64,000 bases of DNA, from contig JBNLGQ010000112.1 of NCBI GenBank assembly GCA_050306135.1, positions 67,794-131,793 of the forward strand, read 5' to 3'. Positions within the stretch are counted from its first letter, which is position 1, and every line of letters starts with the position of its first letter. Below the pieces are notes generated by a model. It saw only the letters and a program-made list of their open reading frames with translations. It was not told where the DNA came from and made no database searches. The position numbers and the translations under genes are program-made. Source of the stretch: Gammaproteobacteria bacterium (lineage in GTDB: Bacteria > Pseudomonadota > Gammaproteobacteria > GCA-001735895). Shown piece after piece: positions 2,728 through 44,877 of this stretch.

Positions 2728-5313
2728 TTACTGGTTAGATTCAAGAAAGTCCTGAGCAAAACGCTGCAATACACCACCTGCTTCATATACCCGGACTTCT
2801 TCAGCAGTATCCAGACGACAGGTCACTGGAATTTCTACACGCTCACCATTAGCTCGATTCATAACTACCGTCAATTTGGTACGCGCTGTGATTTCACCAA
2901 TCACGTCATAGGTTTCGGTACCATCGATGTTATAGGTATGGCGATTTTCACCCGCCATGAATTCCAGCGGTAGGACGCCCATACCGACTAGATTGGTTCT
3001 ATGAATGCGCTCAAAACCTTCGGCAACAATGGCTTCAACGCCTGCCAGACGAACACCTTTTGCCGCCCAGTCACGTGATGAGCCCTGACCATAGTCAGCA
3101 CCTGCAACGATTATCAAAGGCTGCTTACGCTGCATATAGGTTTCAATCGCTTCCCACATACGTGTGACCTTGCCTTCGGGTTCTATGCGTGCCAGTGAGC
3201 CCTGCTTCACTTCACCATTTTCCTGCACCATTTCATTCAATAGTTTGGGGTTAGCAAAGGTCGCACGTTGCGCGGTCAGATGATCACCACGATGGGTTGC
3301 ATAGGAATTAAAATCGACTTCGGGTAATCCCATTTTGGCGAGGTATTCGCCGGCTGCACTGCTGGCCAGGATCGCGTTGGATGGTGACAGATGGTCGGTA
3401 GTGATGTTGTCACCCAGTACCGCCAGTGGTCGCATGCCCTTCATGGTGCGTTCGCCTGCCAGTGCACCTTCCCAGTAAGGAGGGCGACGGATATAGGTGG
3501 TTTGCGGACGCCAGTCATACAGTGGACTGCTGGCTTCTTCCACTTGGCCCAGGTCGAACATTGGATCGTAGATCTGGTGGAATTGCTCTGGCTTTACGCA
3601 GCTACTGACAATCGCATCGATCTCTTCATCGCTGGGCCAGATATCTTTTAAGGTGATCGGTTTACCGGCTTTATCAGTGCCAAGAACATCCTGTTCGATA
3701 TCAAAGCGCACGGTACCCGCGATGGCATAAGCGACCACCAGTGGTGGCGAGGCGAGGAACGCCTGCTTGGCGTATGGGTGGATACGACCGTCGAAGTTAC
3801 GGTTACCGGAAAGCACCGCTGTTGCATACAGATCACGCTCGATGATTTCCTGTTGAATCTTTGGATCGAGTGCGCCACTCATGCCGTTACAGGTGGTGCA
3901 GGCGTAGCCGACAATACCAAAGCCGAGCTTTTCCATTTCGGACAGCAGACCTGCTTCTTGCAGATACAGTTTGGCAACTTTAGAGCCGGGGGCAAAGGAA
4001 GATTTAACCCAGGGTTTACGTATCAGACCAAGCTCATTCGCTTTACGCGCAACCAGTCCAGCAGCAACGACGTTACGCGGATTACTGGTATTGGTACAAC
4101 TGGTGATGGCGGCAATAATCACCGCACCATCCGGTAATTCACCTTCTTTTTCTTCCCATTTACCTGCAATGCCACGAGATTCAAGATCAGCGGTTGGTAG
4201 ACGACGGTGCGGGTTGGAAGGTCCCGCCATATTACGGCATACAGAAGATAGATCGAATTCCAGTACACGCTCGTATTCAACGTTTGCCAGATCATCCGCC
4301 CACAGGCCGGTGAGTTTGGCGTACTGCTCAACCAGTGCAACCTGCTCCGGTTCACGGCCAGTGAGTTTCAGATAATCGATGGTTTGCTGGTCGATATAGA
4401 ACAGACCTGCTGATGCGCCAAATTCAGGCGTCATATTAGAGATGGTCGCGCGATCACCAATGGTCAGATTAGCGGCACCTTCGCCAAAGAACTCCAGATA
4501 GGATGAAACGACCTTCTCATTACGCAGAAACTCGGTGATTGCCAGTACGATATCGGTGGCGGTGATGCCAGGCTGGCGCTTACCAACCAGCTTGACACCG
4601 ATGATGTCGGGCAGGCGCATCATAGAGGGACGGCCCAGCATGACGGTTTCTGCTTCCAGACCACCAACGCCAATTGCGATAACGCCCAGTGCATCAATAT
4701 GCGGGGTATGGCTGTCAGTACCTACACAGGTATCGGGGTAGGCGACGCCATCACGCGCCTGGATAACGGGCGACATCTTTTCCAGATTGATCTGGTGCAT
4801 GATGCCATTACCGGCAGGAATCACGTCGACATTCTTGAATGCGGTTTTGGTCCATTCGATAAAATGGAAGCGATCATCGTTACGGCGATCTTCAATTTCA
4901 CGATTTTTGTCGAACGCGTCTGGATCAAATCCACCAAACTCAACCGCCAGCGAATGATCCACAATCAACTGAGTAGGTACGACAGGGTTGACTTCGGCTG
5001 GGTCGCCACCCATATCGGCAATCGCATCACGCAGACCAGCCAGATCTACCAGCGCAGTTTGACCCAGAATGTCATGACATACCACACGCGCTGGATACCA
5101 GGGAAAATCCAGATCCTGTTTGCGTTCGATAAGCTGTTTCAGTGAGTCAGTAAGTGCGTCAGGATCACAACGGCGCACCAGTTGTTCGGCCAGTACACGA
5201 GAGGTATAGGGGAGTTTTGCATAGGCACCAGGCTGTATAGCCTCGACAGCCTCACGTGTATCAAAGTAATCAAGCGCTGTGCCAGCCAAAGGCTTGCGAT
5301 ATAGTGTATTCAT
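2728..5313 (-). CDS. acnD: Fe/S-dependent 2-methylisocitrate dehydratase AcnD (aconitase family)
   Basis: 861 aa. N-terminus MNTLYRKPLAGTALDYFDTREAVEAI matches the AcnD family. Aconitase Cys ligands are present. The start codon overlaps the regulator stop (TAATG). Confidence 0.9.
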   Translation of the reverse strand: MNTLYRKPLAGTALDYFDTREAVEAIQPGAYAKLPYTSRVLAEQLVRRCDPDALTDSLKQLIERKQDLDFPWYPARVVCHDILGQTALVDLAGLRDAIADMGGDPAEVNPVVPTQLIVDHSLAVEFGGFDPDAFDKNREIEDRRNDDRFHFIEWTKTAFKNVDVIPAGNGIMHQINLEKMSPVIQARDGVAYPDTCVGTDSHTPHIDALGVIAIGVGGLEAETVMLGRPSMMRLPDIIGVKLVGKRQPGITATDIVLAITEFLRNEKVVSSYLEFFGEGAANLTIGDRATISNMTPEFGASAGLFYIDQQTIDYLKLTGREPEQVALVEQYAKLTGLWADDLANVEYERVLEFDLSSVCRNMAGPSNPHRRLPTADLESRGIAGKWEEKEGELPDGAVIIAAITSCTNTSNPRNVVAAGLVARKANELGLIRKPWVKSSFAPGSKVAKLYLQEAGLLSEMEKLGFGIVGYACTTCNGMSGALDPKIQQEIIERDLYATAVLSGNRNFDGRIHPYAKQAFLASPPLVVAYAIAGTVRFDIEQDVLGTDKAGKPITLKDIWPSDEEIDAIVSSCVKPEQFHQIYDPMFDLGQVEEASSPLYDWRPQTTYIRRPPYWEGALAGERTMKGMRPLAVLGDNITTDHLSPSNAILASSAAGEYLAKMGLPEVDFNSYATHRGDHLTAQRATFANPKLLNEMVQENGEVKQGSLARIEPEGKVTRMWEAIETYMQRKQPLIIVAGADYGQGSSRDWAAKGVRLAGVEAIVAEGFERIHRTNLVGMGVLPLEFMAGENRHTYNIDGTETYDVIGEITARTKLTVVMNRANGERVEIPVTCRLDTAEEVRVYEAGGVLQRFAQDFLESNQ

Positions 5314-6029
5314 TATTTTACTCTCTTGAAGGCGTTTATATGGTTAAGTAATTTGGGTTGCAGGTTTTTCTGGGTATATTGAATGTGTCGCCGCATCAGC
5401 ATCTCAGCCAGCTCGGCATCACGGTTAGCGATCGCCTGTACAATATGCCTGTGCTCGTCAAAAGCCGTAGTGACACGAGGACCGGCCATGCCAAGTTGCA
5501 CTCGATACATGCGAATCAGGTGATAGATGCCATTCATCAATTCAGAGATCAGATGCTGGTTCTTACTACCCAGTATGATGCGGTAATGAAAGTCCACATC
5601 ACCGGCTTCCTGGTAGTAGGTTTCCCCTCCTTTCACGGTCTGAAAATGCGTATTTAACAGGGCTTGCAGGTCTTCAATTTCCTGATCGGTCATATTGCTT
5701 GCCGCAAGTCGAGCCGCCATACCTTCCAGAGCCTCACGAACCTGATACAGACCGGTAAGGCCTTCAGCGGTAAGTGCAACCACACGTGCACCCACATTAG
5801 CCTTGCGCTCGACCAGATGACAGGTTTCCAGTCGGTTGATCGATTCGCGTATCACTGCACGGCTGACCGCGTATTTTGTCGACAAATCGGTTTCACTAAG
5901 CTTCGAACCGGAAACGATAGCACCCTCAACAATATCTGACCGAAGCTGGATAAAGGTTTTATCTGCAACAGTTACAGGTTGTTCGTTGAAAAGCAAAACA
6001 GAGGTCATATTGAGTTTTCCGGGCTCCAA
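5313..6029 (-). CDS. GntR-family transcriptional regulator (FadR/FCD-type), likely regulator of acnD-prpF
   Basis: N-terminal winged-HTH GntR signature (LSETDLSTKYAVSRAVIRESINRLE) with an FCD-like C-terminal domain. Translationally coupled to acnD. Confidence 0.75.
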   Translation of the reverse strand: MEPGKLNMTSVLLFNEQPVTVADKTFIQLRSDIVEGAIVSGSKLSETDLSTKYAVSRAVIRESINRLETCHLVERKANVGARVVALTAEGLTGLYQVREALEGMAARLAASNMTDQEIEDLQALLNTHFQTVKGGETYYQEAGDVDFHYRIILGSKNQHLISELMNGIYHLIRMYRVQLGMAGPRVTTAFDEHRHIVQAIANRDAELAEMLMRRHIQYTQKNLQPKLLNHINAFKRVK

Positions 6030-6158
6030 TTGTCGACAATATAAGCAATATTTAACTAAATATCCACCATTGTTAGGCTATATTGTCGACAAAAGTTAAG
6101 TATGAATACTTATATATAGAGAACTTTTTGCGTTTATTGACACATTTTAAAAGATATT

Positions 6159-6293
6159 AACCACAGAGGGCACAGAGAACACGGAGAATGATGAGTTTGG
6201 TTATCTATCGCTACTTATCATTTTGATAAATCGAATCGATGCAGTTCCAAAAAAACCTGAATACCTCTGTGCTCTCCGTGTCCTCTGTGGTTA
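6159..6293. repeat. palindromic CACRGAG nonamer-array repeat, copy 2
   Basis: Arms aaccacagag-ggcacagag-aacacggag and cctctgtgc-tctccgtgt-cctctgtgg enclose a loop of about 75 bp. Lies in the divergent promoter region between the GntR gene and the GNAT gene. Confidence 0.8.
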
Positions 6294-6334
6294 AACTCTT
6301 TTAACGATGGAAAAATGTTCGAGCAAAAAAGCCT

Positions 6335-6796
6335 ATGAAAATTATTGAAGCCGATTATAAAAGTCTGGCAAAGGTAACGGATTTATTCCGTGAATATCAG
6401 CAATTCATCGGTGTAGATCTGTGTTTTCAGGGCTTTGAAGAAGAACTGGCCGGTCTACCGGGCAAGTATGCGCCACCAGCAGGAGCTATTTTTATTGCCA
6501 TTGATAACGGAGAATTGATTGGTTGTGTGGCGATACAACCCATCGATCAGCAACTGGCAGAGTTAAAGCGACTTTATGTCCGACCAGCCTGGCATGGTCA
6601 GGGGATTGGGAAGCAGTTGTTTGAATGTGCAATGGCGCGGGCGCAATCGATTGGGTATGGCAGTATTGTGCTGGATACGCTGGAATCGATGCGCAGTGCG
6701 CGGAAGTTGTATCTGGGGTATGGATTTAGGGAGATAGAGAGTTATTATCATAATCCGGATCCGACGACTAAGTTTTATCGGTATGATTTTGGGTAA
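6335..6796 (+). CDS. GNAT family N-acetyltransferase
   Basis: 153 aa. Acetyl-CoA binding motif RPAWHGQGIGKQL (R/Q-x-x-G-x-G/A). Confidence 0.75.
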   Translation: MKIIEADYKSLAKVTDLFREYQQFIGVDLCFQGFEEELAGLPGKYAPPAGAIFIAIDNGELIGCVAIQPIDQQLAELKRLYVRPAWHGQGIGKQLFECAMARAQSIGYGSIVLDTLESMRSARKLYLGYGFREIESYYHNPDPTTKFYRYDFG

Positions 6797-6837
6797 TCGT
6801 ATTTTTGTTCATTATTGGTAGTAGTAACTTCCTGGAC

Positions 6838-7880
6838 AGTTGTTTCACACGCCTTAGCTTTTCTTGCTTCGTAGTGTCTAACGAGTAGGCGTGCGAGTGG
6901 CTTTCTTTTGCGCGAAAAGAAAGTCACCAAAGAAAGCGCGCCCCTCAATCCCTTGATTATTCCGGGCTTCCTGCCCTCCACCCTTCGGGCCACACTGTGT
7001 GCGTTCAAAAATGTTCCTGACATTTTTGTCGTCAAAATGGCGCGGGCTTGAAAGGGGAGTTACTGCAGTCTGCTAACATAGTTACTATTTAATTTACTAT
7101 TGTGGTTTAAAGAGATATGGAAATAATTGATATTAGAGAAGCTGTATTAACTGATGTAGATGATTTACAGGAACTTTATGCTCATGTGGATCAAATACAT
7201 CATGACGAATATCCCGAAATATTTAAACCATCAATTAACATCAATAGACCTGCCTCATTTTTTGAAGGAATCTTTTCTGATGACAATATAAAGTTTCTTG
7301 TAGCATGTATTGATAATCAAATTATCGGTTTTATTCATGCGGAATTAAAAAAGGCAAATCACCCTGTGTTACAAGATTACTCTTATGGGCACATATCAGA
7401 TATTGTTATTAGGCCAGATCACAAAAGAACAGGAGTAGGAAGTAAGCTTTTTAAATCAATTGAGAAGTGGTTTAAAGAAAATGAAGTTAAAGAAATAAGC
7501 CTTACCGTATTTAGTTTTATTGAAGAGGCTATAGCTTTTTATAAAAAAACAGGCTTTACCAATAGACATTGTACAATGACTAAAAATGTCGAAGTCTTTT
7601 AACGCCCTTATTGAGTGCCGATTGTGAGTCATTTTGCAGGGTCAGCGCACACGGACGTCCGCTGAGGATCGTTGAGCAGGAGCGAATCTGTTCGTGGCGT
7701 TATTGCCAGGGATGGCGGAAGTGCTGGGAATGCAGGAGCAATTCCCAGTGAAAAGGAGCTCGCACGCCTGTTAGAAAGACACTACGAAGCAAGAAAAGCT
7801 AAGGCGTGTGAAACAACAATCCGGTAAGGTGCAAGCGTAAATAAGATCGCCGCGCTAACGCTCGCGATGACAGGAAAAAA
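6838..7880. repeat. composite repeat element E1 with terminal inverted repeats of about 60 bp (GTTTCACACGC...GCGTGTGAAAC) carrying a GNAT cargo gene
   Basis: The left TIR (6842-6903) is the reverse complement of the right TIR (7750-7812) at about 57 of 62 positions. Internal conserved blocks P (6838-7062) and Q (7606-7812) match element E2 at 40766-41520. The GNAT gene sits where E2 has a 150 bp AT-rich spacer. Confidence 0.75.
7117..7602 (+). CDS. GNAT family N-acetyltransferase (cargo of repeat element E1, low GC)
   Basis: 161 aa. Motif RPDHKRTGVGSKLF. AT-rich relative to the flanking sequence. Confidence 0.7.
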   Translation: MEIIDIREAVLTDVDDLQELYAHVDQIHHDEYPEIFKPSININRPASFFEGIFSDDNIKFLVACIDNQIIGFIHAELKKANHPVLQDYSYGHISDIVIRPDHKRTGVGSKLFKSIEKWFKENEVKEISLTVFSFIEEAIAFYKKTGFTNRHCTMTKNVEVF

Positions 7881-7886
7881 ACAAAA

Positions 7887-8040
7887 ATGCTACTCAACTA
7901 CATAGAACCCGTATTCCGCCCCCCAGTAAGGCTAAATCAATCATTCTACAAGTAACAAACGGTGCTCCTGGAACTAATGTAAATTCTGCGATATGTATAG
8001 CGATGAAAAAAATGCTTCGTCCAAAATCTATAGCGAACTA
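7887..8040 (+). pseudogene. frameshifted 5' remnant of the radical SAM gene (degenerate duplicate of 10335-10490)
   Basis: The first 34 nt are identical to the start of the 10335 gene (atgctactcaactacatagaacccgtattccgcc). Then about 75% identity with a 1-nt deletion, giving MLLNYIEPVFRPPVRLNQSFYK*. The upstream 70 bp is also duplicated (7813-7886 versus 10236-10334). Confidence 0.7.
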
Positions 8041-9374
8041 AAGATATTCCCAGATAGTTTTAATAATAAATCCTTATCAGGCATATTTTTTAGTGTATTA
8101 ACAATTAGAGCATAATTACTTGATTGAATAAGTACTGATTTTTCCTTAGATACATATCTCAAATTTGATGTCTTGTCATGAGTATTTGTAGTGGTTTCGG
8201 TTGTAAATTTAGTCTTCCAACTTTGTGCTATTTTTGAAATAAAGTCTCTACTTTTATCCTCATCACCCATATCTAATAAGAGAATAAAGAAAGAATAATC
8301 ATCAAAGTCATAATAATTTTCATCAGAGAGATTGAAAAGCTTAAGTGTCAGTGACTGATAATATGGTGGCGATTTTTTTGGATAAGTCACTTTTATACCA
8401 GTTAATGATTTTATAGCTGCTAACACCCTTGGCGGTGAATATACATCATAATGATATATATATTCTTCATCCGAAAATTCATTTTTCAGGGTCGATAGTC
8501 CAACCATCATCTGATCTGCAGTTTTAAACGTGTTGTTAACAAGGTCTTTATTCTCAGGATATAAGATAAGCATTGCAGAGTTAGATAACTCAGATAATCT
8601 ACGCGGCATAGGATCAATTCCTTGAGACTTTTTATATTTTTCTGCAATATATTTTTTTCCTAGATGATATTTAAATCGCAGTTCCTGTTTATATAACTTA
8701 GATAATTTTTTCTTAGACGTACTTTCATTATCGTTTTTTTCAGGCTTTTGTTTTGATCCTTTATCTAGAATTTCATAGCCTTCTTCACAGCCATATTCTT
8801 TACATAGCTTTTCAGTGAGATATTCAGAATTTCCTTCTAGTAGCGCGCTGAGTAATTCACTTTGACCAGGTCGATAAATGTCATCATTCATGTTGGCTGG
8901 AAATTTTTCAAAATCAGCTGCATGAACAAATTCATGAATAAATAAAGCCTCGTAAATTTGTTTAGCGACATCAGGATCTTTTAAATCATAAGAATATGCA
9001 ATTTCTAGTTCTTCAGGATTAATAAAAATTGTTTTTATATTATCTTTATACTTACCAAGAACATTTTCCGATGAAGCAGCTGAGGAAGCATCGGATAAAA
9101 GCCGTGCATAAAATGGATGATTAATCATCATTTTATATTCATCATACGCATCTTTATAGGTAAGACGTTTTAGCCGGTATTTATCGGCCAGCTCCCATCG
9201 CACATGGCTAAGATCAACTTGAAGTTCTTTTTCTACAGCATTTCTAGATAATTCGGCTGTAACCCTAAGATTTACCTTGTGTTGATATACACTTTTGAAA
9301 TCGTGAGTAGCACAAGAAGTAATTAGAAATGAAGTTAAGAATAAGATAACCCCACTAGCTTTTCTGATCTTCAT
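8028..9374 (-). CDS. lipoprotein with HExxH zinc-metallopeptidase-like motif (unknown family)
   Basis: 448 aa. Signal peptide plus lipobox (LITSC). HEFVH motif followed downstream by Glu (LLEGNSEY). K/E-rich, low-GC gene that overlaps its upstream partner by 20 nt. Confidence 0.55.
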   Translation of the reverse strand: MKIRKASGVILFLTSFLITSCATHDFKSVYQHKVNLRVTAELSRNAVEKELQVDLSHVRWELADKYRLKRLTYKDAYDEYKMMINHPFYARLLSDASSAASSENVLGKYKDNIKTIFINPEELEIAYSYDLKDPDVAKQIYEALFIHEFVHAADFEKFPANMNDDIYRPGQSELLSALLEGNSEYLTEKLCKEYGCEEGYEILDKGSKQKPEKNDNESTSKKKLSKLYKQELRFKYHLGKKYIAEKYKKSQGIDPMPRRLSELSNSAMLILYPENKDLVNNTFKTADQMMVGLSTLKNEFSDEEYIYHYDVYSPPRVLAAIKSLTGIKVTYPKKSPPYYQSLTLKLFNLSDENYYDFDDYSFFILLLDMGDEDKSRDFISKIAQSWKTKFTTETTTNTHDKTSNLRYVSKEKSVLIQSSNYALIVNTLKNMPDKDLLLKLSGNIFSSL

Positions 9375-10020
9375 TTATGTTCTTTAATTCTTCAAGGTGA
9401 GGGTTGATTGAAATCTTACCTGCTTTGATATCCCCAATAAAACCATTCAGAACAACGTCAGATAACGAGCTAGAGTCATAATTGCATAGATAACCAGTAA
9501 TTTTTGCATCTCCTTTCACATCGAATATTGATGCACCTCCAGAAACATAGTCATAAGATAGGCCAGTAAAATCTCGATATCTTCGAAAGTAGTGGCAATT
9601 GGCATCTTCCAAAGTAAATGGAACAATGGAAATATATTCTACTTTTTTAGGCATTTTATTAATAACTTTAGTTATAATTTTTTCTTTTCCTGTTGATAAA
9701 ACCCTATCTTCAAAAGATTCTTGAATTAAATCTTCAACCGTTGATTCGTTAAGAAATATATAATTATCTAAAAGGTAGGTATAGGAAACAAAGAAATCGA
9801 TGGTTCTTTTTTTATTTATCCAACGGGATGACTCGTAATAATACTGATTCTGTTTTACCTGTTTATAACCATTTACAAATTTTAAATCCAGACTATTTTT
9901 AGGTATAGATACTACTAGAGTAGTTGGTTCTTTTAGTTGACCCTCTAGTGGTACGGTTTGACATGATGCCTGTAAAATTATTGAGATTATTAAAATCAAC
10001 GAAGAAAGGGCTTTTAGCAT
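9355..10020 (-). CDS. lipoprotein of unknown function (first gene of the low-GC two-gene islet)
   Basis: 221 aa. Signal peptide plus lipobox (LQASC). No recognisable domain. Preceded by a 280 bp AT-rich leader. Confidence 0.5.
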   Translation of the reverse strand: MLKALSSLILIISIILQASCQTVPLEGQLKEPTTLVVSIPKNSLDLKFVNGYKQVKQNQYYYESSRWINKKRTIDFFVSYTYLLDNYIFLNESTVEDLIQESFEDRVLSTGKEKIITKVINKMPKKVEYISIVPFTLEDANCHYFRRYRDFTGLSYDYVSGGASIFDVKGDAKITGYLCNYDSSSLSDVVLNGFIGDIKAGKISINPHLEELKNINEDQKS

Positions 10021-10334
10021 AATATTTTGATTTATGTACTACAAAAGGGTCGCTATATTACTAAAGGCAACACTTATATATAATGAGCAATAAACGATTA
10101 TAATTGTAGGGTTCTTCCTACATAAACTAGAAATGAAGTAAGTTCCTATGTATAACAATTGATAAAAATACAAAATAAATCATTTCTAGATACAGAATAA
10201 TGTAGATTAATCGATCCAAATGTTTAAATATTCAGAAATACATCAGCAATCCGGTAAGGTGTAAACCTAAATAAAATCACCGCGCAAAGTTAATACCTTT
10301 GGGTATTTGCGATGACAGGTATAACAAAATATAT

Positions 10335-11222
10335 ATGCTACTCAACTACATAGAACCCGTATTCCGCCCTCCCAGTGAGGCTGAATCACTCATCCTGCAG
10401 GTAACAAACGGTTGCTCCTGGAACCAGTGCACCTTCTGCGATATGTACACCGATGAGCAGAAAAAATTCCGCCCAAAATCCATCGAAAACATCCGCAAGG
10501 AACTCGCTTATGTTGCATCATCAAACTACCCTCTGCGACGGGTATTCCTCGCTGACGGCGATGCAATGACCTTATCATTCCGTCGTCTGCTGGAAATTAT
10601 GCAGGCGATCAATGAATACCTGCCAGATATACAGCGTGTGTCTGCCTATTGCCTGCCCCGTAATATCAAAAATAAAACGATCGATGAATTAACGCAATTA
10701 CGCGAGCTGGGTCTGAGTCTGGTTTATGTGGGCTGCGAGACCGGTGATGATTTAATCCTGGAGAAAATCAGTAAGGGTGAAACCTGGCAAAGCTCACTTG
10801 ATGCTTTATTGAAGCTGGGTGAAGCAGGTATCAAACGCTCAGTCATGATTCTTAATGGTCTGGGAGGTACCCGATATACTGAACAGCATGCCCTGAATTC
10901 AGCGAGTTTGATGAATGAATCTCAACCAGAATATCTGGCTACTCTGGTGGTCACTTTTTATAAAGGGCCAGAGCGATTCCAACAGGGCTTTGGCGGTGAG
11001 TTTACAGCTCTCAATCAGCTGCAACTGGCAAAAGAAATGAAAATGTTGATAGAGTCCTTGTCGCTGGATAAGACCATATTCCGCAGCGATCATGCATCTA
11101 ATTATCTGATCCTTAAGGGTGTATTAAATAAAGACAGGGATAAACTCCTGGGCTTACTGGATAAGGCAATTAATCAACCGGGTTCCGTACCACTTAGACC
11201 GGAATGGCAAAGAGGTCTCTAA
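10335..11222 (+). CDS. radical SAM protein with noncanonical CX4CX2C cluster motif
   Basis: From the DNA: GTA ACA AAC GGT TGC TCC TGG AAC CAG TGC ACC TTC TGC translates to VTNGCSWNQCTFC. A glycine-rich SAM motif follows downstream. ATG start at 10335; the track's start at 10299 is a TTG. Confidence 0.65.
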   Translation: MLLNYIEPVFRPPSEAESLILQVTNGCSWNQCTFCDMYTDEQKKFRPKSIENIRKELAYVASSNYPLRRVFLADGDAMTLSFRRLLEIMQAINEYLPDIQRVSAYCLPRNIKNKTIDELTQLRELGLSLVYVGCETGDDLILEKISKGETWQSSLDALLKLGEAGIKRSVMILNGLGGTRYTEQHALNSASLMNESQPEYLATLVVTFYKGPERFQQGFGGEFTALNQLQLAKEMKMLIESLSLDKTIFRSDHASNYLILKGVLNKDRDKLLGLLDKAINQPGSVPLRPEWQRGL

Positions 11223-11229
11223 TTAACGC

Positions 11230-11871
11230 TTAGTTTCTGGCATCAACTCGTTGCTCTGAAAATCCCAGGGCTATCGCAAAGCCGATAAAGATCACTCCAG
11301 TAACCTTATTAAATACGGTTCTTGTAAAATCATTATTCAACCAGTTTCTAACCTGGCTGGCCATAACGACATACGACATAAATATTAAAAACTGCAACAT
11401 AGCAATGGCAGGATTAATGCTAACTAGTTGAGTGAGTACGGGTTGATGTATATCGATAAACTGTGGCAATAATGCAGTGATATAGATAAATGCTTTGGGG
11501 TTGGATGCGGTTACCAGAAAAGCATGACGAAACAGGTAAGAGAGTTTTCTATGCCTGGGTAAGGTTTCGTTAAGATCAAGTTTATTCACTGGCAAAAACC
11601 AGATTTTCAAACCGAGATAGAGAAGATATAAAGCCCCAGCAATTTTAAACAGATTGAATATAGTGACCGAGGTTGCCAGAATCGATCCAAGTCCAATGGC
11701 ACTGAGAATAATCAAAATCTGTAAAGCGACTACATTACCCAGTACCGCCATAACGGATCGTTTCACACCATGTTGTACACCATTATTGATACACAACAAA
11801 ATGGCTGGTCCCGGAGAGGCCATATAGAAGCCTGTAATGGTTAAAAAGATGACATATTGGTCAAATGTCAT
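11230..11871 (-). CDS. LysE/RhtB family amino-acid exporter
   Basis: 213 aa. Six-TM profile. N-terminal LTITGFYMASPGPA is typical of LysE translocators. Confidence 0.7.
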   Translation of the reverse strand: MTFDQYVIFLTITGFYMASPGPAILLCINNGVQHGVKRSVMAVLGNVVALQILIILSAIGLGSILATSVTIFNLFKIAGALYLLYLGLKIWFLPVNKLDLNETLPRHRKLSYLFRHAFLVTASNPKAFIYITALLPQFIDIHQPVLTQLVSINPAIAMLQFLIFMSYVVMASQVRNWLNNDFTRTVFNKVTGVIFIGFAIALGFSEQRVDARN

Positions 11872-11880
11872 AAAGGTCCC

Positions 11881-12972
11881 TTAATCATGTTGAAGATTGA
11901 TCGGTAAACGTCTTGCTCCCCAGTTTCCTGGAGTAGCTTCAAACACCCCACTGCAGGAAGCACCACAATATTGGCATTTTCCCGTTGCGGTAAGATTCCA
12001 GTCAGAGAGAACATACCAGTCCCGTCCAATCAACATCTCGCCGCATTGATGACAATAGCTACTCTCTCCCCTTTTGTCATGAACATTTCCGGTGTAGGCG
12101 TAATACACACCGTTTGTAATGGCTATGGAGCGTGCTCGCTCAAGAGTCTCGATGGGTGTGGATGGAATATCAAGCATTTTATAATCGGGATGAAAAGCAC
12201 TGAAGTGCATAGGTACATCCGGGCCTAGTTTTTCCACTACCCAGCGGGTCATGGCATCCAGTTCTTCTGCGGAGTCGTTTTTACCGGGAATCAATAGTGT
12301 GGTCAGCTCAAACCAGACATCGGTTTCATGCTTAAGATAGATCAGGGTATCCAGCACAGCCTGTAGATGACTACCGGTCAACTGATAATAGAAATCATCA
12401 GTGAATGCCTTGAGGTCAATATTGGCAGCATCGATATGCCGATAGAACTCTGCGCGTGGTTCAGCGCAGACATAACCCGCTGAAACTGCGACAGTTTTTA
12501 TTCCATACTGATGGCAGGCCCTGGCGACATCAATGGCATACTCGTGAAAAATGACCGGGTCGTTATAGGTAAAAGCGACCGAACGACAGCCATACTCACT
12601 GGCGCTTCTGGCGATCTGATCAGGGCTGGCAGTATTAGCCAGAGTATCTGTTTCGCGCGATTTACTGATATCCCAGTTTTGACAGAATTTACAGGATAGA
12701 TTGCAACCTGCAGTACCAAAACTCAGCACAGGAGTACCAGGCAAAAAATGATTCAGTGGTTTTTTTTCGATAGGGTCAATACAGAATCCACTGGAGCGAC
12801 CATAGCTGGTGAGTACTATCGAGTTAGCTTGATTGGCTCGCACAAAACAAAGCCCACGTTGACCTTCTCTCAATTTACAGTAGCGCGGACAGAGATCGCA
12901 CTGCACTCTTTCACTATCAATAGCGTGCCAGTATCGGGTAGAGACCGTATAGCGAGGATCGAAAGAGCTCAT
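11881..12972 (-). CDS. AmmeMemoRadiSam system radical SAM enzyme
   Basis: 363 aa. CNLSCKFCQN (CX3CX2C) plus a C-terminal Cys cluster (CHQCG...CQYCG). Divergently adjacent to the Memo-like and AMMECR1 genes. Confidence 0.8.
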   Translation of the reverse strand: MSSFDPRYTVSTRYWHAIDSERVQCDLCPRYCKLREGQRGLCFVRANQANSIVLTSYGRSSGFCIDPIEKKPLNHFLPGTPVLSFGTAGCNLSCKFCQNWDISKSRETDTLANTASPDQIARSASEYGCRSVAFTYNDPVIFHEYAIDVARACHQYGIKTVAVSAGYVCAEPRAEFYRHIDAANIDLKAFTDDFYYQLTGSHLQAVLDTLIYLKHETDVWFELTTLLIPGKNDSAEELDAMTRWVVEKLGPDVPMHFSAFHPDYKMLDIPSTPIETLERARSIAITNGVYYAYTGNVHDKRGESSYCHQCGEMLIGRDWYVLSDWNLTATGKCQYCGASCSGVFEATPGNWGARRLPINLQHD

Positions 12973-13081
12973 AGTTATAAGGTTTTAATAAGCAATGAAT
13001 AGCACTATACTTGAATGAGAGCTGATAGAAAAACATCATATTATCCAGAGCCTGTGAACTGGCCCTAATAATTCTAACAAT

Positions 13082-13891
13082 GTGGTACAGATGACTAAAT
13101 CAAAAAATATCAGAAAACCTGCTGTAGCAGGTCAGTTCTATCCAGATGATGCCAGGGAGCTTACCCGAGTATTAAAGGGTCTTTTTGCAGCTTCAAAAAC
13201 CCTTCAGGTTAGTCAGGTCAAAGCCATTATCGTACCTCATGCCGGTTATATTTACTCTGGTGAAGTTGCTGCCACTGCCTATATGACACTGATCCCGCAA
13301 ATACATAAGATCAAGCGCGTCATCCTGATAGGCCCCGCACATAGGGTTGGGTTTCATGGCATCGCGACAACCTCGGTAAGTGATTACTCCACACCACTGG
13401 GTGATGTAACGATTGATAAGTCGGCGATCAATATCATTGAATCACTTCCTCAGGTAATAACACTGGATCGCGCACATACCCATGAACACAGCCTGGAGGT
13501 TCAACTGCCTTTTCTGCAAAACCTGCTCGATGAATTTACTCTGGTTCCATTGATTGTAGGAGACTGTAACTCGCAACAGGTGTCTGAGGTACTCGAATTG
13601 CTATGGGGTGGAGAGGAAACACTGCTCGTCATCAGCTCTGATTTAAGTCACTACAATAACTACAATGATGCCTTACATCAGGACCGAAAAACCTCTCAGG
13701 CCATAATAAATCTACAACCTGAGAATATAGACTTTGATGATGCCTGTGGACGTATTCCAATCAAGGGCCTGCTGATGTGTGCAACTCGGCATAATTTAAC
13801 TCCTCTACAGGTAGACCTGAGAAATTCGGGCGATACCGCCGGTACCAGGGATAGAGTAGTCGGCTATGGTGCCTATATTTTTACTCAATGA
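13082..13891 (+). CDS. AmmeMemoRadiSam system protein B (MEMO1-like)
   Basis: 269 aa. Memo signature AGQFYP...PHAGY...GPAHR...SSDLSHY. The stop overlaps the AMMECR1 start (ATGA). Confidence 0.8.
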   Translation: MVQMTKSKNIRKPAVAGQFYPDDARELTRVLKGLFAASKTLQVSQVKAIIVPHAGYIYSGEVAATAYMTLIPQIHKIKRVILIGPAHRVGFHGIATTSVSDYSTPLGDVTIDKSAINIIESLPQVITLDRAHTHEHSLEVQLPFLQNLLDEFTLVPLIVGDCNSQQVSEVLELLWGGEETLLVISSDLSHYNNYNDALHQDRKTSQAIINLQPENIDFDDACGRIPIKGLLMCATRHNLTPLQVDLRNSGDTAGTRDRVVGYGAYIFTQ

Positions 13892-14445
13892 GCTATAGCC
13901 CTCAACAACAACTAATACTACTGGCCCTTGCCAGAGACTCGATTGCTAACGGCATACAAAGCGGCAAAGCACTTCAGATAAATCCCCTGGATTATGATGC
14001 TGAACTCCAGCTGCTAAGGGCCTCTTTTGTTACTCTTCAAAAAAACAATCAGCTCAGAGGCTGTATTGGAAATCTGCAGGCCAGCAGGTCACTGGTCGTA
14101 GACGTTTGTGAAAACGCCTATGCAGCGGCGTTTCGAGATCCAAGGTTTGACCCTGTTAAACCATCAGAACTAGATAGCCTGCAAATCAGTATTTCAGTGC
14201 TTACACCAGCAGAAGTGATGAGTTTTAAATCCGAGCAGGATTTAATCCAGCAAATAAAACCGGGCATAGATGGCCTGATACTCCAGGAGGGTTACAACAG
14301 AGGCACATTCCTGCCCGCAGTGTGGGAGCAATTACCCAAAGCTGAAGAATTTCTCCAGCATTTGAAACTCAAGGCTGGACTACCTGCCGATTACTGGTCC
14401 GAGTCCATTCAGATCAGCCGTTATGGTGCCGAAAAAATCGAGTAA
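13888..14445 (+). CDS. AmmeMemoRadiSam system protein A (AMMECR1 domain)
   Basis: 185 aa. AMMECR1 core LRGCIGN...PRF.P...FLP. Confidence 0.8.
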   Translation: MSYSPQQQLILLALARDSIANGIQSGKALQINPLDYDAELQLLRASFVTLQKNNQLRGCIGNLQASRSLVVDVCENAYAAAFRDPRFDPVKPSELDSLQISISVLTPAEVMSFKSEQDLIQQIKPGIDGLILQEGYNRGTFLPAVWEQLPKAEEFLQHLKLKAGLPADYWSESIQISRYGAEKIE

Positions 14446-39472: not shown

Positions 39473-39590
39473 CTCACCACAGAGTACACAGAGATCACAG
39501 AGGTTAAAACGTCCATCTTTTAGTTTCAGAAGATTTCTAAAGTATCAAAACATGTTGATAATCAGTTTAAATTCTCCTCTCTGTGGTGAG
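39473..39590. repeat. palindromic CACRGAG nonamer-array repeat, copy 3
   Basis: ctcaccacagag-tacacagag-atcacagagg, a 70 bp loop, then cctctctgtggtgag. Lies between the convergent Rieske and qor genes. Confidence 0.75.
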
Positions 39591-40617: not shown

Positions 40618-40765
40618 GGTGGCTCTCCTCTTTTTGAGGAAGATAATTTAACCTTTTTTTGTTTTGTGTGCTTTGGTTTTTTGAAGAGGGTGTAGCTTAA
40701 ATTTGATAGTGTCATTGTGAAGGTAGTAAAACTACCTTTTAACAATAGCTAATTCCCGGATAATG

Positions 40766-41520
40766 GTTTCACACGCAATGCTTTCCTTACTCCGTAGCCA
40801 ATGACGAGTACGCGTGCTAGTGGCTTTCTTTTGCGCGAAAAGAAAGTCACCAAAGAAAGCGCGCCCCTCAATCCCTTCATCGTCAAAATGGCATCCAGAG
40901 CGCGGTCGGCTCAGACGCGGGTCCAACCGCGCTGAGCCTCAAATGACATCCTTGTCATTTGACCCCACTCTGAATGCCATTTTGCCGCGGGCTTGAAAGG
41001 GGGATATAAAGGAACTTCTTATCTCCGTTAACATAAAAGTATGTCATAACTCTATCTAATCAATAATAAAGAATATCCAAAGAAATGGTTAATAAATGGC
41101 CAATAGCAAATGTATAACACGTTATTTTTTACTGCCAGTTAACCATAGCGCTTTCCCATTGCCCTTATTGAGTGCCGATTGTGAGTCATTTTGTAGGGTC
41201 AGCGCACACGGACGTGCGCTGAGGACAGTCGAGCATGGATGCGAGTCTGGCCGTGGCGTTATTGCCAGGGATGTCATGTATGCAGAAAATGCAGGAGCAA
41301 TTTTCTGTTCAAAATGGCTTAATTTTCGGGAAGCCGCTGGCCACTCAATTGGGATGTCCTTTTTTTCGTCTCTTTTTGTGGACAAGCAAAAGAAAGCCAC
41401 TCGCACGCGTACCCGTCATTGGCTACGGAGTAAGGAAAGCATTGCGTGTGAAACAGTAATCCGGTCAGTTGCTAACCTTTTAAAGATTGCAGCGATAAAG
41501 CTCGCAATGACATTATCGAC
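40766..41520. repeat. composite repeat element E2 with terminal inverted repeats of about 62 bp, no cargo
   Basis: The TIRs at 40766-40827 and 41395-41456 are reverse complements, with 2 mismatches. Internal P and Q blocks are homologous to E1 (ggctttcttttgcgcgaaaagaaagtcaccaaagaaagcgcgcccctcaatccctt, and cccttattgagtgccgattgtgagtcattttg-agggtcagcgcacacggacgt). The flanking R block aatccggt-ag-tg also matches. Confidence 0.75.
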
Positions 41521-41539: not shown

Positions 41540-42247
41540 TCACTCCACCAACTCAATAATTATCCGCCTATTCTGCTTCCCCTTCTTCTCAATCTTCTTA
41601 ACCCTGACCGCCCCAATCTCATTTGAATTCGCAACATGCGTCCCACCACAAGGCTGCAAATCCACTCCCTCAAAATTAACCAGTCTCACCTTACCATGCC
41701 CCATCGGGGGCTTAACACTCATGGTGCGAATCAACTCTGGTTGCGCTTCCATTTCTGCATCACTGATCCATTGCATAGTCATCGGATGATCTGCTGTGGT
41801 GATATCATTCAGGGCCTGCTCAATCGCCAGCTTGTCCGGCGGCTCAGGTAAATCAAAATCCAGCCGTGCAGTGCCGTCATCACGGATGCTGCCGCCAGTC
41901 ACCGGCTCGGGTATCACAGCACATAACATATGCATACAACTATGTAATCGCATAATCTGATAGCGTCGATCCCAGTCTATGCTTAGTGTCAGCTGTTCGC
42001 CTATCTCGGGCAGGTTATCGCCTTCAACCTGATGTAATATCTCAGCACTTTCTCTATCCTTGATGGTATTGATGATTTTTATTTCCGAGTGATCAGGACG
42101 CAGCATAATTCCACTGTCTCCTGGCTGTCCACCGCCTACTGGGTAGAATACGGTTTGGTCAACGATAATATGGCCATCCTGAATGCCAGTTACCTTTGAT
42201 GTACATTGTTTGAGATAACCATCTTCTCGAAATAATTCTAGAGTCAT
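41540..42247 (-). CDS. AlaX-like alanyl-tRNA editing protein (tRNA synthetase second additional domain, SAD)
   Basis: 235 aa. HSCMHMLC...CGGTH zinc-binding editing-domain motifs (HxxxH...CxxxH). Confidence 0.7.
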   Translation of the reverse strand: MTLELFREDGYLKQCTSKVTGIQDGHIIVDQTVFYPVGGGQPGDSGIMLRPDHSEIKIINTIKDRESAEILHQVEGDNLPEIGEQLTLSIDWDRRYQIMRLHSCMHMLCAVIPEPVTGGSIRDDGTARLDFDLPEPPDKLAIEQALNDITTADHPMTMQWISDAEMEAQPELIRTMSVKPPMGHGKVRLVNFEGVDLQPCGGTHVANSNEIGAVRVKKIEKKGKQNRRIIIELVE

Positions 42248-42302
42248 TGTTTTATCCTTAGCTTAAATAATATTTACTTTAAAACAGTATGGCAGAAACA
42301 AC

Positions 42303-42332
42303 AACGGCCCTGAAAAGGGCCGTTAGTTTTTT
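42303..42332. terminator. GC hairpin (aacggccc-tgaaaa-gggccgtt) flanked by an A-run and a T-run; terminator of the phaC-phaB operon
   Basis: Lies 13 nt past the phaB stop. The flanking A6 and T6 tracts make it bidirectional in form. Confidence 0.5.
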
Positions 42333-42344
42333 AGGTCTAAAGCT

Positions 42345-43067
42345 TTAGTACATCTGCTGACCGCCGTTAACGTCCAGTGTGGAACCAGTGATAAAACCCG
42401 CTTCATCGGCTATTAGAAACATGACGCTACGCGCAATATCTTCCGGGTCGCCCAGACGTCCTACCGGTATACGCTGGATGATTTTTTCCAGTACCTTTTC
42501 CGGAACCGCTCGCACCATATCTGTCAGTACATAACCAGGAGCAACTGCATTAACCGTAATGCCTTTAGCTGCACCTTCAAGTGCTAATGCTTTGGTGAAT
42601 CCGTGGATGCCAGATTTGGCTGCTGCATAGTTCACCTGTCCATACTGTCCTGCACGACCATTGATGGAACCGATATTGACGATGCGCCCGAATTCACGTT
42701 CGCGCATTCCATCGATTACCGCACGACACATATTAAAGCAGGATGCCAGATTGGTCTGAATGACTTCATTCCATTGCTCGAAAGTCATTCTATGCATGGT
42801 GGTATCTCTGGTAATACCTGCATTGTTAACCAGTACTTCAACCGGACCGAGATCAGCTTCAATGGTTTCTATACCTTTTTGACAGGCTTCGAAATCTGCG
42901 ACATCAAATTTATAAGCCGGTATTTTGGTAACTTCGGTAAAAGCTTTAGCAGAGGCTTCATTACCTGCATAGGTTGCCGCTACATTGTATCCTGCTTTTT
43001 TTAACGCCAGGCAAATTGCTTCACCTATGCCACGTGTACCACCTGTAACAACTGCAACTCTTCCCAT
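42345..43067 (-). CDS. phaB: acetoacetyl-CoA reductase PhaB
   Basis: 240 aa SDR. VTGGTRGIGEAIC and NYAAAKSGIHGFT. Confidence 0.8.
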   Translation of the reverse strand: MGRVAVVTGGTRGIGEAICLALKKAGYNVAATYAGNEASAKAFTEVTKIPAYKFDVADFEACQKGIETIEADLGPVEVLVNNAGITRDTTMHRMTFEQWNEVIQTNLASCFNMCRAVIDGMREREFGRIVNIGSINGRAGQYGQVNYAAAKSGIHGFTKALALEGAAKGITVNAVAPGYVLTDMVRAVPEKVLEKIIQRIPVGRLGDPEDIARSVMFLIADEAGFITGSTLDVNGGQQMY

Positions 43068-43083
43068 TTCACTCCCCTCATAG

Positions 43084-44877
43084 TTATATATTCACGATTT
43101 TAGTTTTTACATATCGGCCGGGGGCATCTTCGATAACTTTGAGCTGATGATCCCCGGGTTGCCTTGCATCAATTTGTTCACCGCTATATTTGCTTACCCA
43201 TTTATCCCATGCAGGCCACCATGACCCCTCATTCTGTTTGGCCTTATCTGCCCATGCCTGTGCATCTTTAGGTAACTTAGCTGTGGTCATTTTGTAACCG
43301 TATTTGTTAGCTGCAGGAGGATTCACGATTCCTGCAATATGGCCAGATCCACCCAGGATAAATTTTACCGGTCCAGAGAAATTTTGGGCCCCCATCCAGG
43401 TCGATTTCCATGGAGCTATATGATCCTCTACGGTAGAGATAAAAAGTGCCGGAGTTTTGATTTTTGTTAAATCAATAGGCGTGCCATCTATTTCCAGTGT
43501 TCCAGGTTTAACCAGATTATTGTGCAGATATAGATTTCGTAAATACCATTTATGCATAGCTGCTGGCATACGTGTGGAATCTGAATTCCAGTACAACAGG
43601 TCAAATGCACGAGGGTCATTTCCCATTAGATAATTGTTGATATAAAAAGACCAGATTAAATCGTTTGAGCGCAGCAGATTAAAGGTGCCAGACATCTTGC
43701 CACCATCCAGATATCCTTCCTGATCCATTTTCTCTTCCAGTGAAGCTAACTGCTGTTCATCAATGAACATACCCAACTCACCCGGTTCAGAAAAATCGAT
43801 CATGCTAGTAAAGAAGGTTGCACTTTTAATACGATTGTCATCGTGTGCAGCCATATAGGCAAGGGTGGTCGCTAATAATGTTCCACCGATGCAATAACCG
43901 ATGGCATTGATGTCTTTTTCTCCAGTGGCCTGTTCGATCTGATCGATGGCGGTGAGTACACCTTCCTTCATGTATTCAGTGAAGCCAACCTCTTTGTAAC
44001 TTTCGTCAGGATTCACCCATGAGATGACAAATACCGAATGGCCCTGTTCAACCAGCCAGTGAATCAGTGAATTTTTTTCCTGTAGATCGAGAATATAAAA
44101 TTTATTGATCCAGGGTGGCACTATCAGCAATGGTGTCTTATTTACCTTTTCGGTAGTGGGTGTGTACTGAATCAGCTGAAACATGCGATTTTCATAAACC
44201 ACCTTGCCTGGGGTGGTAGCCACATTTTTGCCCAGTTCAAAAGCACTGTAATCGGTCATGCTGATCTGCAGCTTGCCTTCTCCACGCTCCAGATCATCGA
44301 TCATATTTTTCATCCCATGCAGCAGACTCATGCCGCGCGTTTCTATGACTTTTTCAAGTACCGCTGGATTAGTCGTAGCAAAGTTAGTGGGGGATAAGGC
44401 ATTCAGAAAAAGGTGGGTAAAAAACTCTGCCCTTTGTGCAGTTTTTTCATCCAGGCCTTCTGTCTCTTTGACCAGTCGAAGCATATGCTGAGATAACAGA
44501 AGATAAGATTGCTTAATCATATTGAAAGAGGGTTGATCCCAGCCTTCATGTCTAAATCGTCGATCTGTTTTATCTGCTTCTACGGTAGTCGGCAGAGGTT
44601 GTTGTGTCATTATAGCCTGTAGAGAATTCTGGTATAATTCCAGACTTTGTTTCCAGAAATCAATATTAGCTGTTAAAACTTTTTGCGGGTTTTCATTCAT
44701 ATGCGCAAAAAGATCCGTATAAACATCACCCATCTTTAGCGGGTCAAAGTCCGGTTTGTCCTGTTGTGTAGTAAAAGCTTTTAACAGTTTTTCAGCCTGT
44801 TTGTAACTGGCTTCGATTCCCTGAGAAATAGATGTGAAACCTAAGGCATCCTGAAACGTTGATTGTTGATCGGACAT
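43084..44877 (-). CDS. phaC: class I poly(R)-hydroxyalkanoate synthase PhaC
   Basis: 597 aa. Lipase box GYCIGG with catalytic Cys. Conserved Asp and His downstream. Confidence 0.9.
   Translation of the reverse strand: MSDQQSTFQDALGFTSISQGIEASYKQAEKLLKAFTTQQDKPDFDPLKMGDVYTDLFAHMNENPQKVLTANIDFWKQSLELYQNSLQAIMTQQPLPTTVEADKTDRRFRHEGWDQPSFNMIKQSYLLLSQHMLRLVKETEGLDEKTAQRAEFFTHLFLNALSPTNFATTNPAVLEKVIETRGMSLLHGMKNMIDDLERGEGKLQISMTDYSAFELGKNVATTPGKVVYENRMFQLIQYTPTTEKVNKTPLLIVPPWINKFYILDLQEKNSLIHWLVEQGHSVFVISWVNPDESYKEVGFTEYMKEGVLTAIDQIEQATGEKDINAIGYCIGGTLLATTLAYMAAHDDNRIKSATFFTSMIDFSEPGELGMFIDEQQLASLEEKMDQEGYLDGGKMSGTFNLLRSNDLIWSFYINNYLMGNDPRAFDLLYWNSDSTRMPAAMHKWYLRNLYLHNNLVKPGTLEIDGTPIDLTKIKTPALFISTVEDHIAPWKSTWMGAQNFSGPVKFILGGSGHIAGIVNPPAANKYGYKMTTAKLPKDAQAWADKAKQNEGSWWPAWDKWVSKYSGEQIDARQPGDHQLKVIEDAPGRYVKTKIVNI

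Follow-up and report, generated by a model that had tools for sequence, protein, structure and literature searches.

A decayed radical-SAM gene start beside a two-lipoprotein operon: a recombination scar around a palindromic repeat

Introduction

How does a low-GC gene pair come to lie between two copies of the start of a neighboring gene? The window analyzed here, the whole stretch of 64,000 nucleotides (nt) from contig JBNLGQ010000112.1 of a gammaproteobacterial metagenome-assembled genome (MAG), contains such a locus. Two overlapping genes of probable lipoproteins, of 448 and 221 amino acids (aa), form an operon on the minus strand, upstream of an intact radical-SAM gene (hereafter rSAM), and a degraded copy of the rSAM start lies at the far end of the operon. 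A first-pass annotation, made from the sequence alone, had recognized an old insertion or recombination at the rSAM start that left the gene start decayed at one end of the lipoprotein genes and intact at the other, and this part agrees with the results below, where the pseudo-start is placed at 7887-8027; it had also taken the arrangement for the hallmark of an integrative islet. We find instead that the duplication is the scar of non-site-specific recombination in a rearrangement-prone spacer around a palindromic repeat, here called E, and not the footprint of an integrase-driven island.

The direct repeat and its joint with the operon

The repeat is real, but its limits differ from 7813-8040 and 10236-10490, where they had been placed at first. 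A pairwise alignment matches window positions 7814-8027 to 10244-10477, with 214 aligned columns that are 80.4% identical and another 20 columns of gaps; with the equivalent segment as query, blastn against the 64-kb window gives E ~2e-46, and the repeat was also picked up by a repeat finder run on the window. Each copy consists of a non-coding R block (73/91 nt) followed by nt 1-141 of the rSAM gene. The left copy (copy A) has R at 7814-7872 on the plus strand, ending ...GCTCGCGATGACA, then a 14-nt spacer and an ATG at 7887. The right copy (copy B) has a variant, R' (10244-10334, plus strand), which includes an insertion of 15-18 nt and is followed by the true rSAM ATG at 10335. R matches 10244-10288 at 84% and a further site, 41454-41498, at 69%. 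The intact gene (10335-11222, plus strand) codes for a 295-aa protein with a CX4CX2C motif (C-SWNQ-C-TF-C) and a Pfam Radical_SAM match at E = 1.5e-19.

Copies A and B are identical over the first part of the coding sequence (0/35 mismatches for nt 1-35) and then diverge progressively (6/47 for nt 36-84 and 13/55 for nt 85-141), and copy A has two 1-nt deletions within nt 36-84 and one 2-nt deletion within nt 85-141. This bears out the earlier description of 34 identical coding nt followed by a drop in identity and a frameshift. Translation of the left copy (7887-8027, plus strand) yields MLLNYIEPVFRPP, after which the frame shifts and a stop follows after 22 codons. With three indels in its coding part, the left copy is a pseudogene of the rSAM start.

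Homology between the copies stops at 8027, which is rSAM nt 141, and not at 8040 with the first 150 nt of the gene as initially thought: the 448-aa gene has its native 3' end at 8028-8039, a stretch that resembles the rSAM sequence at just 7/11 positions (manual count). The possibility that the C-terminus of the 448-aa protein was made by the joint was rejected, since its ...NIFSSL* ending is kept in all homologues. At the joint (8027-8028), rSAM nt 141 directly meets the TAG stop codon (reverse-complemented) of the 448-aa gene, and the two sides have no more than 1-2 nt of microhomology in common; illegitimate recombination is recognized by novel joints of this form, between unrelated sequences that share so little. 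The same arrangement is found at 99.9-100% identity in three independent assemblies (L001, L002, L003), and because these agree and the two copies differ by 20%, the repeat is not an artefact of assembly.

The rSAM spacer in related genomes

Relatives were collected by a scan of species-representative genomes for rSAM loci and by look-ups of lipoprotein homologues, which added L038. Their rSAM orthologues share 92% (L005), 91% (L004), 89% (L038), 85% (L006 and L007) and 74% (Ca. Thiodiazotropha) aa identity with that of the window. The spacers upstream of these genes are best described by reference to E, whose right arm is made of three blocks, P, Q and R. In L005, an AlaX-like gene is followed by a complete E (495 bp) and rSAM, without the operon; in L006 and L007, a short E (Q-R) precedes rSAM, other genes lie upstream, and the operon is again absent. 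Q, R and rSAM are contiguous, without lipoprotein genes, in all three.

Two other relatives carry the operon at this very site. The L038 spacer contains AlaX, a left inverted repeat (~95 nt), a 449-aa gene, a 221-aa gene, the leader, a shortened R' made of ATTCCTGCAGGT and TTTGCAATGTCAGG, and rSAM; the gene pair is 76% and 70% identical in aa sequence to that of the window, and there is no second rSAM start. Homology between the window and L038 ends exactly at 8028, on the stop codon. The L004 spacer contains AlaX, the left arm of E, ~290 nt, a 5' remnant of the 448-aa gene, the 221-aa gene (58% aa identity), the leader, an R' with a 60-nt insertion, and rSAM, and it likewise lacks an rSAM pseudo-start. 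The synteny comparison recommended in the first-pass annotation gives a divided result: Q-R is contiguous with rSAM in L005-L007, but L038 and L004 have the lipoprotein genes at the site with the duplication absent, which is the very finding that the annotation had named as refuting its reading.

The junction between leader and R' is common to the window and L004, and probably also to L038 (~10/13 nt, by eye). Moreover, the insertion inside the window's R' is homologous to part of the 60-nt insertion in L004. Copy A's R has no such insertion, and the P-Q-R context around it is intact, as in the spacers that contain E only. Because the leader/R' junction and the R' insertion are shared with relatives, copy B and the operon appear to be the vertically inherited state, and the placement of the operon between inverted-repeat remnants of E would predate the split of these lineages.

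Age of the joint and mosaic identity of the pseudo-start

The operon also occurs, with the same pseudo-start on the same stop codon, in L055-L058, where both outer flanks differ from those of the window. There the operon is 94% identical at the nucleotide level (~91% at third codon positions), and L055 is the only exception to the rule that the sequences past the 448-aa stop codon are unrelated from one context to the next. Because the same joint between pseudo-start and stop codon exists in L055/L058 in a different context, it is probably old and would have formed before the lineages of the window and L055 split. For the same reason, namely that the pseudo-start sits with the operon elsewhere, it is not a target duplication produced by insertion at rSAM.

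The two pseudogenes differ unevenly along their length. The window copy is 94.5% identical to the L055 pseudogene over nt 85-141 and only ~73% over nt 9-84, whereas against its own live gene the pattern is reversed (92% over nt 9-84 and 76% over nt 85-141). Counted over nt 1-35, 36-84 and 85-141, the mismatches to the L055 pseudogene are 12/35, 14/47 and 3/55, and the mosaic pattern is significant in both comparisons (Fisher p = 0.02 against copy B and 0.002 against the L055 pseudogene). We infer that gene conversion from the live gene, at a distance of 2.4 kb, later replaced the 5' part of the window's pseudo-start, an event that would also account for the 35 identical nt. Recent conversion is preferred because the L055 pseudogene is decayed in that part (12/35 mismatches). 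The functional genes of L005, L006 and L007 have these 35 nt without a change as well. Another candidate, that these 35 nt mark the crossover point of a Campbell-type integration, was dropped, as L005-L007 have the same nt in their genes and copy B has no imported 5' part. When the two pseudogene copies are merged into a consensus, L006/L007 come closest to it (93-94%), compared with 91% for the window's own gene.

In L055, operon and pseudo-start are bracketed by a direct repeat of 42 nt or longer (978-1019 and 3622-3663, one mismatch), which lies in a degenerate response-regulator-like 5' end, and the L055 contigs break off within a repeated stretch of the sequence that lies upstream in them. 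The reverse-complemented pseudo-start there supplies an in-frame ATG to the right-hand repeat copy.

The palindromic element E

A repeat search over the whole window shows that blocks P, Q and R (7604-7872) recur at 41161-41512, and both sites belong to larger palindromic elements. E1 (6806-7886) begins with the left tip TGTTCATTATTGG..., continues as a left arm to 7056, holds a central cargo, and ends with the right arm P-Q-R and the 14-nt spacer before the pseudo-start; its inverted arms (6828-6904 and 7752-7828) are 84% complementary. E2 (40701-41512) lies between a quinone oxidoreductase gene and the AlaX-like gene, has a 155-nt AT-rich center, and its inverted arms (40746-40834 and 41386-41474) are 90% complementary. 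The tips of E read TGTCATTG(C/T)GA... and ...TCGC(A/G)ATGACA, with the terminal inverted repeats TGTCATTGCGAG... and ...CTCGCAATGACA, and the variable center is bounded by ...GGGCTTGAAAGGGG and GCCCTTATT... The central slot is filled by 55 nt in L005, by 155 nt in E2, by a GNAT gene in E1 and, at the rSAM spacer, by the lipoprotein operon. The cargo of E1 is a 161-aa GNAT acetyltransferase gene (7117-7602, plus strand; Pfam Acetyltransf_1, E = 9e-18) with a GC content of 30.5% and 20.4% at third codon positions (GC3); it comes directly after another GNAT gene of normal GC content (6335-6796).

R had been described as promoter-proximal. Since it recurs in E2, it is the right terminal inverted repeat of E and not a promoter block private to rSAM. 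The distance from the end of R to the rSAM ATG is 11-14 nt in L005, L006, L007 and the window's copy A, and 17 nt in copy B. A promoter scan found fewer promoter-like sites than in shuffled sequence. The terminator scan detected a weak terminator-like hairpin inside R (7867-7850, minus strand), oriented so as to stop transcripts of the lipoprotein operon. The kept R and pseudo-start could, as a suggestion only, serve as the 3' end of that operon.

Besides the two copies in the window, E is present as orthologous copies in L004 (4224-4645), L005 (5492-5987) and L006, and as short fragments in L045 and L004. The copies share arms at 77-93% identity. The left arm of E1 and the AlaX-adjacent arm of L004 share 90% identity, as do E2 and the E of L005, although the asymmetric interior of E2 is flipped relative to AlaX. 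No target-site duplication is found at the ends of E (the flanks are GATAG|...|TTATC for E2 and AATG|...|GGAAA for the L005 copy). There was no exact match to a 23-nt E core in the metagenome collection or to E2 in plasmids, no transposase was seen, and Rfam at its gathering threshold gave no match anywhere in the window. A repeat element with a variable central slot is a by-product of this analysis that could be worth following.

Displacement of the AlaX block

The AlaX-like gene, which encodes an editing-domain protein (41540-42247, minus strand), is the immediate left neighbor of the spacer in L004, L005 and L038, whereas in the window it is ~31 kb away and inverted. The whole AlaX-SDR-PhaC block (41540-44877) is on the opposite strand relative to these three relatives and stands beside E2. 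In the relatives, the block adjoining the rSAM spacer reads AlaX-SDR-PhaC-M50-DUF3369-HDOD-RmuC. Window positions 8028-40617 are collinear with the L038 contig, from the 449-aa gene through the quinone oxidoreductase gene. Copies of E stand at both junctions of the displaced block, and the E2 junction is seen in five independent contigs of 50-200 kb. This fits a displacement of the AlaX block by an inversion, in which two E copies would have recombined through their inverted arms.

One simple inversion with respect to L038, spanning 8028-41534, was considered and rejected as a full description: the AlaX side fits, but on the AcnD/PrpF side both order and orientation differ in L047. More than one rearrangement separates these genomes.

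The lipoprotein operon

The 221-aa gene (9355-10020, minus strand) is the first of the operon and overlaps the 448-aa gene (8028-9374, minus strand) by 20 nt; an AT-rich leader (10021-10243, minus strand) precedes them. The GC content is 31.6% for the operon (GC3 22-24%) and 24.7% for the leader, compared with 45.9% for rSAM (GC3 48%) and 42.7% for the whole window, in line with the original description of the gene pair and its leader. The same annotation had listed low GC among the features of its islet and proposed a check of GC and codon usage; in every genome and context examined, the operon lies 8-12 points under its flanks. Because this deficit recurs in all contexts, low GC is a trait of the gene family and no sign of recent import here. 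Some 115 nt of the leader nearest the gene, including the palindrome TTGTAGG-N6-CCTACA (10104-10122), are kept in all contexts (seven upstream regions aligned, which represent four unrelated genomic contexts), and this palindrome is likely an operator or promoter module.

Both proteins are probable lipoproteins. The signal peptide of the 448-aa protein ends in ...FLITSC21, with a Cys that is invariant among homologues, and that of the 221-aa protein in ...ILQASC20, with Q17, S19 and C20 invariant (...Q-x-S-C20) and a non-canonical residue at position -3. The 448-aa protein also has an EGNxEY motif and an HEXXH motif at aa 147-151 (~8922-8936), which reads HEFVH here; H147, E148, H151, E180 and E184 are invariant in the family. 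No significant match to Pfam, NCBIfam or the PDB was found, a PDB profile search gave noise only, and remote relatives are restricted to sub-threshold matches to DUF6782, Tox-MPTase3 and Zincin_2. An AlphaFold2 model has a mean predicted local distance difference test (pLDDT) score of 51 and is unreliable in the HEXXH region, where the score is under 50. We hypothesize that this is a putative zincin-like metallopeptidase lipoprotein of an unnamed family.

The family is rare: a first search gave eight homologues, and 54 representatives at E <= 1e-3 were retrieved among 1.84 billion proteins. The 448-aa protein has no match in plasmid or phage collections, and a metagenome scan with its profile found nothing. 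The 221-aa gene is paired with an overlapping 448-aa homologue in all seven contexts seen. A check of the distribution, another of the earlier proposals, shows the pair at several unrelated loci: between EamA and DUF6892 genes in L040, between fasciclin and protoglobin genes in L042, which belongs to the same genome as L005, and at loci of their own in L052/L053 and L055. This rare two-lipoprotein operon, with its HEXXH protein and conserved palindromic leader, is a second by-product that might deserve further attention.

Possible origins of the duplication

The account that we favor, though we hold it short of probable, is that a segment of an E-only spacer was joined into a chromosome with an operon-bearing spacer by illegitimate recombination; the fragment would then have decayed and undergone gene conversion, and recombination between E copies would have inverted the DNA between them. 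The AlaX-rSAM spacer is a rearrangement hot spot built on E, and related genomes have it in two long-lived versions. In one, E abuts rSAM (L005, L006, L007); in the other, the lipoprotein operon and its leader take the place of the interior of E, leaving inverted-repeat remnants that include R' (L038, L004). In an ancestor of the window, the two versions would have been joined in tandem: a segment of the first (E with its GNAT cargo, R and rSAM nt 1-141) would have recombined into a chromosome carrying the second, with homology as its anchor on the AlaX/E side and an illegitimate join at the other end, rSAM nt 141 against the 448-aa stop codon. The process would be homology-facilitated illegitimate recombination (HFIR) or an equivalent partial duplication. 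In HFIR, as outlined in PMC3240628, homology joins DNA at one end and an illegitimate join closes the other. The truncated rSAM start would never have worked again and would have decayed through AT-biased substitutions and the three indels, and its first 35-84 nt would later have been overwritten from the live copy. A later inversion between two E copies would have carried the AlaX block ~31 kb away and brought the AcnD-GntR-GNAT block beside E1.

Integration of the Campbell type would explain the same layout by a circle that carried the operon with a fragment of the rSAM start and R, and that entered R-rSAM through a single homologous crossover, duplicating the segment on both sides; the operon would then be a recombinase-independent, hitch-hiking module carrying a piece of a former neighbor. 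The direct copies 7814-8027 and 10244-10477 do flank 8028-10243 as insertion-duplication would have it, the identity pattern shifts near nt 84 as at a crossover, and the unit in L055-L058 (leader, 221-aa gene, 447-aa gene, pseudo-start) lies elsewhere, again bracketed by a direct repeat. However, the polarity is wrong. A crossover at ~nt 84 would put the decayed 5' part in the live copy, yet copy B is normal and conserved, and the copies are not reciprocal chimaeras, only copy A being a mosaic (nt 1-84 like copy B, nt 85-141 like the L055 pseudogene). Copy B must moreover be the resident one, since R' and the leader/R' junction are shared with L004, and probably L038, both without the duplication. 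A circle with homology to the target also presupposes an earlier copy of the same structure, and no circular contig was seen. We consider this route unlikely, and to the same degree as a tandem duplication of the unit 448-aa gene, 221-aa gene, leader, R and rSAM nt 1-141, after which the upstream operon would have been swapped for the GNAT-P-Q interior of another E through recombination in shared inverted repeats. The joint indeed has the form of a tandem junction with little or no microhomology, the L055 contigs end as a tandem array would, E arms that are 77-93% identical could support an exchange of cargo, and partial duplications (merodiploids) are a documented outcome of bacterial recombination (PMC3784515). 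Tandem duplication, however, needs two events where one suffices, the second operon copy has left no trace, and copy A's R lacks the insertion that R' and L004 share, so that R too would have to have been replaced.

A site-specific islet that entered the 5' end of rSAM, brought a replacement 5' end and later lost its integrase is very improbable. Low-GC cargo between direct repeats, with one decayed and one intact gene start, and a gene pair found at several unrelated loci (L040, L042, L052/L053, L055) are what such an islet would produce. Against it, Pfam and NCBIfam scans of the genes at 5313-12972 and Pfam calls within +/-10 kb (GNAT, radical SAM, LysE, GntR, aconitase and others) show no integrase or transposase, the former as the first-pass annotation had already noted, and a search of the 64-kb window with ARAGORN detects neither tRNA nor tmRNA genes. 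The repeats, with 214 nt, 80% identity and indels, are unlike short and near-identical att sites, and neither the plasmid and phage collections (448-aa protein) nor plasmids (E2) gave matches. Low GC is shared by the whole family, in L055 the pseudo-start accompanies the operon to another locus, L005-L007 have R-rSAM but no operon, and L038 and L004 have the operon at this site but no duplication; the proposed hallmark of an integrative islet does not survive these observations. The least credible of all is an error of assembly, be it a chimeric join or a repeat that was collapsed or expanded. The source is a MAG, and the related contigs L002 and L003 break at E1 and inside the pseudo-start, but copies that differ by 20% and by indels are no single locus read twice, the three assemblies agree across the joint, and a diverged orthologous joint exists in L055/L058.

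Several points weigh against the favored joining of two spacer versions. The donor that it predicts, an E with the 161-aa GNAT gene beside an intact rSAM, was not found in any genome, and the phylogenetic signal of the 141-nt fragment is too small to name a donor lineage. The quinone oxidoreductase gene has other neighbors and no E in L045, L047 and L049, so that these genomes do not confirm an ancestral position for the second E copy. The stop codon is the exact site of the joint and is also abutted by the left inverted repeat of L038, which could mean a fixed left boundary with the operon itself as the inserted unit. The direct repeat in L055 hints at a recurrent duplicative process and not at a single accident. 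These last points lead to a further reading, which we rate as quite improbable, less so than the islet: the operon would be a recombinase-less mobile module that relocates duplicatively, assisted by homology or hairpins, carrying a fragment of its old neighbor and duplicating the 5' end of the new one. The duplicated 5' ends would be those of rSAM here and of the response-regulator-like gene in L055, and E might be a palindromic carrier whose defined central slot takes up low-GC genes as cargo and which gives rise to inversions.

Neighboring genes and further repeats

Downstream of the 295-aa rSAM gene and a LysE exporter gene lies a complete AmmeMemoRadiSam system (radical-SAM enzyme, Memo-like protein and AMMECR1; 11881-14445), which is syntenic in all close relatives. 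A second repeat family in the window, with heptamer-like CACAGAG / CTCTGTG units, is found at 2637-2731, 6147-6305 and 39473-39503, and includes an inverted pair (6147-6186 and 6265-6304) in the GntR-GNAT intergenic region. Finally, assembly GCA_050297295.1 holds both L002, identical to the window, and L049, a quinone oxidoreductase contig that is 92% identical to that of the window and has other neighbors, which suggests that two related strains were binned together.

Comparison with known recombination systems

Integrase-mediated islands that regenerate the end of their target gene share with this locus the low-GC cargo between direct repeats that include a gene end, one decayed and one functional. 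Integration next to a tRNA or tmRNA gene is common for such islands, although not universal. Here, however, there is neither a recombinase nor a tRNA, the repeats are long and diverged, and relatives have the cargo at the site without the repeats. Direct repeats around low-GC cargo are thus insufficient to call an integrative island, and there is nothing unusual in kind about a truncated relic of a gene start where recombination has joined two sequences.

Mobile insertion cassettes and palindromic repeats resembling miniature inverted-repeat transposable elements (MITEs) carry passenger genes, for example MIC231 of Bacillus cereus. E likewise has terminal inverted repeats (84-90% complementary over 77-89 nt), a variable center and no transposase. 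It differs from them by the absence of a target-site duplication and of a known cognate transposase, by its few and mostly orthologous copies, and by unusually long arms (~250-350 nt) that resemble nested small repeats. A palindromic repeat of this kind may organize local insertions as well as a ~31-kb inversion.

In Campbell integration, a single crossover duplicates the homologous segment (insertion-duplication), and such repeats can later recombine or undergo gene conversion. Direct 5'-end repeats that flank a piece of DNA, with one copy truncated and one intact, are common to this locus, to Campbell integrants and to merodiploids (for merodiploidy, PMC3784515). The repeats in the window, however, are old and 20% diverged, copy B is shared by vertical descent with relatives that have no duplication, and the polarity of a Campbell event is absent.

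With HFIR, as defined in PMC3240628, the locus would share an anchor by homology (the AlaX/E side), a nearly homology-free join (rSAM nt 141 against the stop codon), and the outcome of added DNA with a truncated gene fragment. Here the process is deduced from comparative sequence and the donor allele was not found; moreover, HFIR gives a direct partial duplication only if donor and recipient carry different versions of the locus. The locus can be seen as a compact natural example of alternative intergenic versions that became concatenated, with a pseudogene fragment that was probably refreshed in part by gene conversion.

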